Shown here in pieces: positions 18,166-20,426 of a stretch of 64,000 bases of DNA (its first letter is position 1; every line of letters starts with the position of its first letter). The notes under the pieces were generated by a model that saw nothing but the letters and a program-made list of their open reading frames with translations, made no database searches and was not told the DNA's origin. Source of the stretch: Escherichia coli (GTDB lineage Bacteria; Pseudomonadota; Gammaproteobacteria; Enterobacterales; Enterobacteriaceae); the NCBI RefSeq assembly GCF_029227855.1, contig NZ_CP074356.1; one strand, 5' to 3'. Made by a program: the position numbers and the translations under genes.

Positions 18166-18264
18166 ATCACACTCTGGTGGGTAATTATGATTATTAAAAG
18201 CAAACCCTCATAAATACTATAGACGGGACGGGATGAAAGTGGGAGTAAAATCAGATAACTACGA

Positions 18265-18348
18265 TCAGGAAAGATAAAAACGGGCGGCAATCAGTGCGCA
18301 TAAAATAAGGATGATAAGAATGAACTCAAAGCGATAACGGCCCACCAT
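18265..18348 (-). CDS. ydgU: small membrane protein YdgU (27 aa)
   Basis: Hand-translated minus-strand ORF MVGRYRFEFILIILILCALIAARFYLS; too short for the ORF track. Confidence 0.6.
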   Translation of the reverse strand: MVGRYRFEFILIILILCALIAARFYLS

Positions 18349-18440
18349 ACTACCCTCCGCTAAAGGCGGTGCTAAACGTTATCCGCTTAGCACCGTAATT
18401 TTCAGGCGCGAGGGGGCGCGCCAGCATTACTATTGATAAC

Positions 18441-18749
18441 TTACGCTGCGGGTTGTGCAGCAGGTTTTGCCGGTTGCTGATGGCTGTGTTTCTTGGCGTG
18501 TTTCTTCGCTGCCTGCGCTTTTTGTTCAGGAGCTTTCTGTTCAGCTTTGGCATTTTTATGATGCTTTTTAGCCGCCTGCGCTTTCTGGGCAGGTGCTGCT
18601 TTATGCTGTTTTTTATGATGTGTGGTTTTCGCCGGCGCTGCTTTGGTGGTCGTCGCAGTCGGAGCAGGTGTGGTCGCAGTCTCTGCAGCAAAGGCAGCAG
18701 AAGACAGACCCATAGCAGCGGCAACAACCAGAGCTAATACTTTTTTCAT
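18441..18749 (-). CDS. asr: acid shock protein Asr (102 aa)
   Basis: ORF 18441..18776 (-); start at ATG 18747-18749 ([21 protein letters not shown]); Ala/Lys/Gln/His-rich low-complexity mature region. Confidence 0.9.
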
Positions 18750-19172
18750 TGTCATACCCTCAATTTGTTTTTTCATTTAACCCCACTGCGGGGCCGTTGA
18801 AATAACTATATCCCTGGGAATGGCAGACTTCCGTGAGTGGTTGGTTTCAGCGTGTAACGATATGTACAAACGCTGAATAAATTACAGCGTTGATAATAAC
18901 GTATTGTGACTTAAGGGAAATTTAGCTACCAATAATAGTAGTCTTGATCGGGTTAACTATTTTACTACTTACAAAGCGGTAGAATAACTGCGCATCAGTA
19001 ATAAATGACACACAGCAAAATGAATCCGTTTATTTGGGTACTTATAATCCTGATGACACTAGATGCGCTGCGGGAATTGGCTGGCGCTTCGTCTATTTTA
19101 GGATGGCTATTAACGTTGGTTTGAGCAGACAATAAGTCCGGATGGGTATTTACCGCAGTCCGGACTTATTTT

Positions 19173-20426
19173 TCAGGCGTGCAGACGACGATGCAAACGC
19201 GTCCCGACCAGCAGAGCAATGACCAGCATCAGAGCAATAAATGCGCCGACGCCGTTCCAGCCATAGTTATGCCAGAAAACACCACCCAGCGTCCCGGCAA
19301 TACTCGACCCCAGATAGTAACTGAACAGATACAGCGAGGAGGCCTGGCCTTTAGCGCGTTTTGCTCGGGGGCCGATCCAGCTGCTGGCTACTGAGTGGGC
19401 TGCGAAGAATCCGGCTGAGAAGAGTAACATTCCGGCAAAGATCAGCCACAGCGAGCTAAATAAGGTCATCAGTAAACCAAACAGCATAACCCCCGTCGAA
19501 AACAACATCACCGGACCGCGCCCATAGCGGGTGGTCATGGTTCCGGCTTTGGGTGAGCTCCATGTACCGGTCAAATAGGCCAGCGATAATAAGCCAACCA
19601 CAGCCTGACTGACATGCCAGGGGGAGAGCATCAACCGATAGCCGATGTAATTAAACAGCGTGACGAACGACCCCATCAGCAAAAAGCCTTCTGCGAACAA
19701 TAACGGTAATCCCCGGTCACGCCAGTGCAGACGAAAGTTGATAAACAACGTCTTAGGTCGCAGCGAAGTCGGGCGAAAATGGCGTGATTCAGGGAGGATT
19801 TTCCAGAACATTAACGCCGAGGCCAGCGCGAAACAACCGATTGCCGCCAGCGCAATTCGCCAGTTGAAAAAGTCCGTGAAGACACCGCTAATTAAGCGTC
19901 CGCTCATGCCGCCAATTGAGTTGCCGCTGATATACAACCCCATCGAAAAGGCCACGAAACTGGGGTGGATTTCCTCACTAAGATAAGTCATGCCAACAGC
20001 TGCTACGCCACTTAACGAAAGCCCAATCAAGGCGCGCATAATCAAAATGCCGTGCCAGCTGGTCATCATTGTTGAAAGTAATGTGCAAATGGAGGCCAAC
20101 AGTAGCGCCGTTACCATCACTGGTTTGCGACCAATGGCATCGGATAGCGGGCCAGTAAACAGCAAACCGATAGCCAACATCGCCGTGGAAATGGACAGTG
20201 AAATACTACTGTTCGCGGGTGTTAAGCCAAACTCTTGTGAAAGCACCGGAAGGATAGGTTGCACACAATAGAGAAGTGCGAAGGTTGCCAGTCCGGCAGA
20301 GAACAGCGCCAGGGTGACGCGCATAAATTGCGGCGTACCGCGTTTAATAAATTGATTTGGCTGAGAAATGCTTTGCTTGTCAGTGTCGCTTGCCGGAGCG
20401 CCATCAACAGTTGTAGTACGGCTCAC
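19173..20426 (-). CDS. ynfM: MFS transporter YnfM (417 aa)
   Basis: ORF track 417 aa; 12-helix MFS pattern; GTG start at 20424-20426. Confidence 0.92.
   Translation of the reverse strand: MSRTTTVDGAPASDTDKQSISQPNQFIKRGTPQFMRVTLALFSAGLATFALLYCVQPILPVLSQEFGLTPANSSISLSISTAMLAIGLLFTGPLSDAIGRKPVMVTALLLASICTLLSTMMTSWHGILIMRALIGLSLSGVAAVGMTYLSEEIHPSFVAFSMGLYISGNSIGGMSGRLISGVFTDFFNWRIALAAIGCFALASALMFWKILPESRHFRPTSLRPKTLFINFRLHWRDRGLPLLFAEGFLLMGSFVTLFNYIGYRLMLSPWHVSQAVVGLLSLAYLTGTWSSPKAGTMTTRYGRGPVMLFSTGVMLFGLLMTLFSSLWLIFAGMLLFSAGFFAAHSVASSWIGPRAKRAKGQASSLYLFSYYLGSSIAGTLGGVFWHNYGWNGVGAFIALMLVIALLVGTRLHRRLHA

Follow-up and report, generated by a model that had tools for sequence, protein, structure and literature searches.

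The DNA at 18441 to 18749 of the window (the whole stretch of 64,000 nucleotides of Escherichia coli DNA that was analysed) is an ordinary copy of the characterised E. coli gene asr, a member of the Asr family by every test that could be applied to it; there is nothing new in kind at the locus, and the gene was already known. Taken as a whole, our reading is held with high confidence: an ordinary asr, overlapped by two long open reading frames (ORFs) that are by-products of its composition, and represented in a few strains by length alleles bounded by short direct repeats. The small addition made here is a catalogue of four such in-frame asr alleles, each bounded by microhomology.

The ORF listing gives a 309-nt ORF at 18441..18749 on the minus strand, encoding 102 aa plus a stop from an ATG at 18749. 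Its product matched Pfam PF06392 ('Asr') at 46.8 bits (E=4.5e-12; the cut-off, or gathering score, is 24.9), with residues 22-102 aligning to profile positions 1-101 of 101, and its coding sequence (CDS) was 100% identical to the annotated asr of E. coli CFSAN018748, within a match that was itself 100% over 509 bp. The RefSeq label on the identical 309 nt is 'acid resistance repetitive basic protein Asr'. The gene is in the orthologous position, with the order ynfM-asr-ydgU-ydgD conserved in the RefSeq annotation of the identical locus and in that of K-12 DH10B. By the ORF, the Pfam match and the RefSeq identity, the coordinates and the gene name assigned by the sequence-only reading were exact. 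Asr of E. coli K-12 (b1597; PF06392) is the same gene, with 102 aa and the same neighbours ynfM, ydgU and ydgD; compared with DH10B, the Asr of the window has 2 amino-acid differences (T25A, T67A) and its CDS 6 nucleotide differences, while the signal peptides are identical and both proteins carry two QKAQAAKKH motifs; there is no difference of substance. An in-frame upstream ATG at 18776 on the minus strand would give a 111-aa version (18441-18776) with an added MKKQIEGMT; it is the start in some database entries (141-aa chimeras, described below), and the RefSeq start is the ATG at 18749. The features of the gene are as follows.

18441..18749, minus strand: asr CDS, acid shock protein (ORF, Pfam PF06392, 100% identity to CFSAN018748)
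18687..18749, minus strand: signal peptide, codons 1-21 (from the translation; codons with T at position 2 occur nowhere else in the gene)
18444..18686, minus strand: mature low-complexity basic region, 81 aa (composition and entropy)
18561..18587, minus strand: QKAQAAKKH copy 1, residues 55-63 (exact 9-aa repeat)
18498..18524, minus strand: QKAQAAKKH copy 2, residues 76-84 (exact 9-aa repeat)

By inspection, the N-terminus is a Sec-type signal peptide (MKK, a hydrophobic core and AFA/AE), and it is invariant across E. coli alleles and orthologues. The AFA/AE pattern suggests the putative cleavage site, and the Pfam match begins at what would be the first mature residue, 22. Acid-induced Asr is reportedly exported and processed to a form of about 8 kDa.

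The mature protein consists of 25 A, 17 K, 9 T, 9 Q, 8 P, 8 H, 3 E, 1 N and 1 S, that is, 9 residue types with an entropy of 2.69 bits/residue, A, K, T and Q together making up 74%; aliphatic (V, L, I) and aromatic residues are lacking, and M, F, D and R are also absent. The sole exact internal peptide repeat, QKAQAAKKH, begins at residues 55 and 76, 21 aa apart, and the identity-by-lag profile of the mature protein peaks at 21 residues. A 9-aa repeat was reached in 0/5000 shuffles of the mature sequence, the longest among the shuffles being 8. Degenerate HHK/KKH stretches are found besides the exact repeat, and the core motif of the family is present as two exact copies in a mature region rich in Lys, His, Ala and Gln. 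The low complexity and internal repetition that had been read from the letters were borne out, the repetition being real but modest. In the DNA, copies 1 and 2 differ at 6/27 nt, all of them third-position and synonymous, and have diverged at every available synonymous site. Since the copies differ at synonymous sites only, the internal duplication is old and the Asr peptide is under purifying selection; what has been conserved is the peptide, not the DNA. The DNA repeat families in asr have just 70-78% identity across 30-36 nt, and Tandem Repeats Finder returned a weak 12-nt, 2.5-copy row with a score of 48 and no real array. No exact direct repeat is longer than 11 nt, a length reached by two, AAAGCGCAGGC (at CDS 166 and 229) and CATCATAAAAA (at CDS 130 and 187), and the longest homopolymer is A6.

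In the literature, Asr is described as a periplasmic, intrinsically disordered chaperone with a net-charge-dependent action (PMC10746267, with reference to Seputiene 2003 and Ren 2022); asr is induced ~1000-fold at pH 4.4, where ~2% of Ribo-seq reads map to it (PMC10746267). Its functional analogy to HdeA/HdeB and to disordered hydrophilin- or LEA-like protectants is that it protects proteins of the periplasm and outer membrane at low pH, by a disorder-based action (PMC10746267). No sequence relationship to these proteins was found in the Pfam search, where Asr was the only family above its cut-off. HdeA and HdeB are folded dimers.

The Asr orthologues of other Enterobacterales (E. fergusonii, Yersinia, Serratia, Brenneria and Pectobacterium) likewise have a signal peptide and an Ala/Thr/Pro-rich part followed by a Lys/His/Ala/Gln-rich part. 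The QKAQAAKKH core is near-invariant and was present in all full-length orthologues examined, with one copy in Yersinia and Brenneria, two in E. coli, E. fergusonii and Serratia, and three in Pectobacterium aroidearum. The length of the full-length orthologues varies between 73 and 117 aa, and the spacing of the motifs is 18-23 aa, against 21 in E. coli. The differences in motif copy number among genera indicate that gain and loss of the unit is real over long time scales.

The surroundings of asr are those of the known locus. Its downstream neighbour lies 92 nt away:

18265..18348, minus strand: ydgU, 27-aa small membrane protein MVGRYRFEFILIILILCALIAARFYLS (RefSeq annotation mapped from the identical locus)

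The YdgU protein is hydrophobic, and its RefSeq names are inconsistent ('hypothetical protein', 'stationary phase-induced protein' and 'small membrane protein YdgU'); the gene is co-transcribed with asr and is the most strongly acid-induced small ORF (PMC10746267). The asr-ydgU spacer (18345-18445, minus strand), folded as RNA, forms three consecutive hairpins at -38.5 kcal/mol (z = -2.9; 0/200 shuffles were as stable), the last of which overlaps the ydgU ribosome-binding region (GGAGGG) and, going by the predicted fold, might modulate read-through or the translation of ydgU. A simple terminator scan did not flag these hairpins, and a promoter and terminator scan of 18200-19200 gave no signal above shuffle expectation. 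On the other side, between ynfM and asr, is a small ORF (19005-19124, plus strand) with RefSeq lengths of 72, 105 and 120 nt in different genomes, under the name 'hypothetical protein' or 'KPN_01571 family protein'; in the window it has a 39-aa form from 19005 and a 23-aa form from 19053 (MTLDALRELAGASSILGWLLTLV).

Two further long ORFs overlap asr, and both were present in the ORF track as listed, with 125 and 94 aa respectively. The sequence-only reading had taken them for artefacts of the repetitiveness of the gene.

18350..18727, minus strand: spurious ORF in the sense +1 frame, 125 aa (ORF listing; no Pfam; codon logic)
18453..18737, plus strand: spurious ORF in the codon-aligned antisense frame, 94 aa (ORF listing; no Pfam; codon logic)

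Why these frames are open can be followed codon by codon. The sense +1 frame reads codon positions 2-3-1, and a stop in it needs a T at codon position 2; the codon-by-codon check found such codons at 1, 4, 5, 7, 8, 9, 13, 15 and 20, all in the signal peptide, and because none lies beyond Phe20 the frame has no stop after that residue. From the end of the gene the +1 ORF continues by chance through the 3' untranslated region to 18350. A stop in the antisense frame needs a sense TTA, CTA or TCA, and, because the TTA of Leu5 is the only one present, the frame has a single stop, the ORF being closed at 18735-18737 by the complement of that codon. Codon order was shuffled, which destroys the repeats and keeps the composition: the antisense open run still averaged 76 ± 15 of 102 codons, the observed 97 being reached in 10% of shuffles, and the sense +1 run averaged 57 ± 17, the observed 96 being reached in 3%. 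Since the shuffle scatters signal-peptide codons into the mature part, these figures understate the openness predicted from composition alone. The open length of the two frames does not go beyond what the composition of the host gene provides, the codon types that would give stops being absent from the mature region. As the openness both survives the destruction of the repeats and is explained by codon logic, the ORFs are artefacts of composition and not of repetition; the earlier judgement that they are artefacts was right, on Pfam and codon logic, and the cause it gave was imprecise.

The protein databases hold another trace of the +1 frame. The protein homology search missed the main E. coli cluster of 102 aa and recovered only orthologues, fragments and frameshift chimeras, and an exact look-up of intact Asr (102, 111, 123 and 81 aa) had no match in the collection of 15 billion proteins. 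Many 'Asr' entries of 132 or 141 aa start as Asr, switch to the +1 frame and end at the stop at 18350-18352, and the only database relatives of the +1 ORF that the protein search recovered are the tails of such chimeras. Their commonest junction is the following run, where ...TTHHK is followed by NSIKQH...

18609..18614, minus strand: A6 run, CDS 136-141 (homopolymer list)

This junction was seen in P0016, P0022, P0023, P0024, P0027, P0052 and P0058, and a second one was at an A5 run (...AAK followed by SIIK...). A synthetic A5 query representing the commonest frameshift had no exact match among 5,422 complete E. coli genomes, and the frameshifted entries are accordingly either rare mutations or sequencing errors at homopolymers. 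With the +1 frame open as far as 18350, a frameshift in asr is called as a longer 'Asr' of 132 or 141 aa and not as a truncated one. Salmonella, Klebsiella and Serratia 'Asr' entries are also chimeras, with long alternative-frame tails, up to 179 aa (P0056, P0063, P0067, P0070, P0071, P0077, P0120 and P0037), and the open alternative frame, with the mis-annotation to which it leads, is therefore family-wide. Such 132-/141-aa entries contaminate protein databases.

Could one or both of the alternative ORFs be a real overlapping gene, or could the +1 frame be reached by ribosomal or transcriptional slippage at A6, yielding an Arg/Lys-rich product of 132 aa? It is rare for ordinary genes to have both frames long at once (306-nt stretches taken from 27 other long frames of the window were fully open in 1.3% for sense +1 and in 9% for antisense), the +1 open run was matched by just 3% of codon shuffles, and translation of asr in acid is so extreme, by the Ribo-seq share cited above from PMC10746267, that even rare frameshifting would give product. 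The openness is nevertheless fully accounted for by the codons of asr, and neither ORF had a Pfam match at E<=1 or a family of its own. The junctions of the chimeras, the sole relatives, are at differing A-runs, as expected from mutations or sequencing errors and not from a conserved gene; the A6 run is not phased in the asr frame as a classical X XXY YYZ slippery heptamer; and the last ~30 codons of the +1 ORF cross the hairpin-rich untranslated spacer. The single-nucleotide polymorphisms among 11 asr alleles, with third positions accounting for 6/12, show a bias too weak to discriminate between frames. We give the overlapping-gene explanation virtually no credence: the alternative ORFs are non-coding by-products of residue and codon composition. 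Long +1 and antisense ORFs in low-complexity genes free of hydrophobic residues are predictable from codon logic, and are not worth chasing.

The length of asr was compared across strains with a 509-bp query centred on the gene, which had a match in 5,422 of 5,426 complete E. coli genomes. In-frame length alleles were found in 17 of the 5,422 (0.3%), and the remaining 99.7% were length-invariant. From the 5,422 a spread sample of 60 rows was taken, 59 of them colinear and all 59 spanning exactly 509 bp; the weakest of the 60 was an insertion of the IS66 family (ISCro1) in strain ZYB39. The comparison of asr length among strains, which the sequence-only reading had proposed, thus uncovered four in-frame alleles in place of a single length. 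All four are bounded by direct repeats of 9-11 nt:

18574..18584, minus strand: first copy (CDS 166-176) of the 11-nt direct repeat AAAGCGCAGGC, where the +63 and -63 alleles have an endpoint
18511..18521, minus strand: 11-nt direct repeat AAAGCGCAGGC, second copy (CDS 229-239) (exact repeat list and allele alignments)
18486..18506, minus strand: pair of 9-nt repeats AAGAAACAC at CDS 244-252 and 256-264, spaced 12 nt, which bound the 98-aa allele (-12 nt)
18652..18681, minus strand: pair of 9-nt repeats GACTGCGAC at CDS 69-77 and 90-98, spaced 21 nt, which bound the 95-aa allele (-21 nt)

The +63 nt allele came to light through the A5 query, as a span of 135 bp where 72 bp was expected. It is carried by 3 O157:H7 genomes from Minnesota, in which asr is 372 nt and encodes 123 aa with three QKAQAAKKH copies, and it is a perfect tandem duplication of CDS 166-228, a unit of 21 aa, flanked by AAAGCGCAGGC repeats. 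A junction query for the reciprocal deletion recovered the -63 nt allele from the related cheese isolates UC4224, UC4315 and UC4316, in which asr is 246 nt and encodes 81 aa with one motif copy. The -12 nt allele, with 98 aa, has lost AKKH between AAGAAACAC repeats and was found in 10 genomes, the junction probe matching 45/45; in three that were fetched the CDS was 297 nt on one common local haplotype, and since the 10 genomes share that haplotype they may go back to a single event. In strain MS1665 a -21 nt allele has lost seven residues between GACTGCGAC repeats, leaving an asr of 288 nt and 95 aa. The proteins of the length alleles are annotated under RefSeq WP_ accessions, and no paper describing an asr length polymorphism was found in the literature searched.

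For each exact direct repeat of >=7 nt in four haplotypes, junction probes were built for both the deletion and the duplication product; in the final probe search longer spacers were used, and duplication probes that seeded 192 wild-type records of one haplotype were left out. At the other probed direct-repeat pairs of >=7 nt, with spacings of 15, 24, 42, 46, 48, 57, 58, 75 and 96 nt, no deletion or duplication was found, and this includes the 11-nt pair CATCATAAAAA, 57 nt apart, for which the probes recovered neither product. Partial probe matches at query 1211-1243 and 2322-2358 were rejected as haplotype noise, and the one genome fetched (EA2) had a normal 309-nt asr. Junction probes detect predicted repeat events only, a bias that is offset for indels of at least ~12 nt by the identity bands of three independent tile searches. 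These bands reproduced the allele counts, with 3 records at 90-95% (the -63 allele), 10 at 80-90% (the -12 allele) and 1 at 90-95% (MS1665), and the correspondence was confirmed by local re-alignment of the alleles. The 5' tile had no record under 95% identity, and by the tile-band counts there is no other indel of roughly >=12 nt among the 5,422 genomes; these counts do not bound indels of 1-6 nt.

Five records had no colinear match over >=80% of the 509-bp query, and asr was interrupted by an insertion sequence (IS) in at least 2 complete genomes, by ISCro1 in ZYB39 and by IS1A in MSB1_4I. The ISCro1 of ZYB39 (IS66 family; L002 3350-6050) is inserted near asr codon 84 and the IS1A of MSB1_4I (L014 1786-2483) lies in the 5' part of the gene; both interrupted loci nevertheless have an 'Asr' CDS in the PGAP annotation, in truncated or fused form. 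In one genome the asr match was on a plasmid-classed record, and 4/5,426 genomes were without any asr match.

That the length alleles are artefacts of assembly or sequencing we consider extremely unlikely. Assemblers can collapse or expand repeats, and many of the frameshifted Asr entries from drafts and metagenomes are probably homopolymer errors, the A5 allele being found in 0/5,422 complete genomes. The four alleles, in contrast, are all in-frame, with clean junctions, in finished genomes; the 10 genomes with the -12 allele are from different laboratories, hosts and countries; and three related genomes share the +63 allele, as another three do the -63 allele. A 63-bp unit is, moreover, far shorter than a sequencing read, which makes its collapse unlikely.

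With the alleles taken as real, how they arose can be proposed from the anatomy of their junctions. Short direct repeats would occasionally serve as the endpoints of in-frame deletion or duplication, through replication slippage or microhomology-mediated recombination, and the rare E. coli alleles of 81, 95, 98 and 123 aa would result from such events. The strongest hint of such a mechanism is the existence of reciprocal +63 and -63 products at one repeat pair. Over longer times, repeat-endpoint events may have led to the 1-3 motif copies of different genera. As synonymous divergence has proceeded while the peptide was conserved, just 9-11 nt of exact DNA repeat is left, and this divergence between motif copies would keep the event rate low.

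A much stronger claim would be that asr is a hypermutable, slippage-prone, contingency-like locus with frequent length change between strains, and this we judge very unlikely. Its attraction is plain, in that four in-frame alleles exist, all bounded by direct repeats and including both reciprocal products of one pair, motif copy number varies between genera, and Yersinia has 83-aa and 91-aa forms within a species. Against it stand the 17/5,422 genomes, in which each allele belongs to one clone or local haplotype; the lack of a tandem array, with exact repeats of <=11 nt and homopolymers of <=6 nt; and the synonymous differences between the motif copies, which remove the substrate for slippage. 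For E. coli the census contradicts the strong form of the claim, which is largely refuted. The likeness to simple-sequence contingency loci consists of length change at direct repeats and of A-runs as the sites of frameshifted entries; asr differs from them in having no long perfect tract, whether homopolymer or tandem array (its longest homopolymer is 6 nt and its longest exact repeat 11 nt), and close strains do not frequently differ in length, as both the 17/5,422 and the identical span of the 59 colinear rows attest. It is not a contingency (phase-variable) locus. The proneness to slippage and length variation that had been read from the repeats was therefore correct in kind, given the four repeat-bounded alleles, and overstated in degree.

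The biological weight of these observations is small, asr being a characterised gene whose RefSeq name already says 'repetitive'. The rare repeat-bounded alleles do nonetheless form a graded set: by residue counting with His protonated, the estimated net charge is ~+22 for the 102-aa protein and ~+15, +19, +21 or +28 for the length alleles, and one, two and three QKAQAAKKH copies correspond to precursors of 81, 102 and 123 aa with net charges of ~+15, +22 and +28. The three-copy form belongs to an O157:H7 clone, the one-copy form to cheese isolates. The 1/2/3-copy series may, in particular lineages, tune the net-charge-dependent chaperone activity and hence acid survival, and so be something other than neutral noise, and, more speculatively, the open +1 frame may now and then be reached at A6 when asr is so extremely translated under acid induction; both are ideas that we regard as very unlikely. 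The rare 81-, 95-, 98- and 123-aa alleles are, all the same, a ready natural series on which the net-charge model published for this disordered chaperone could be tested.
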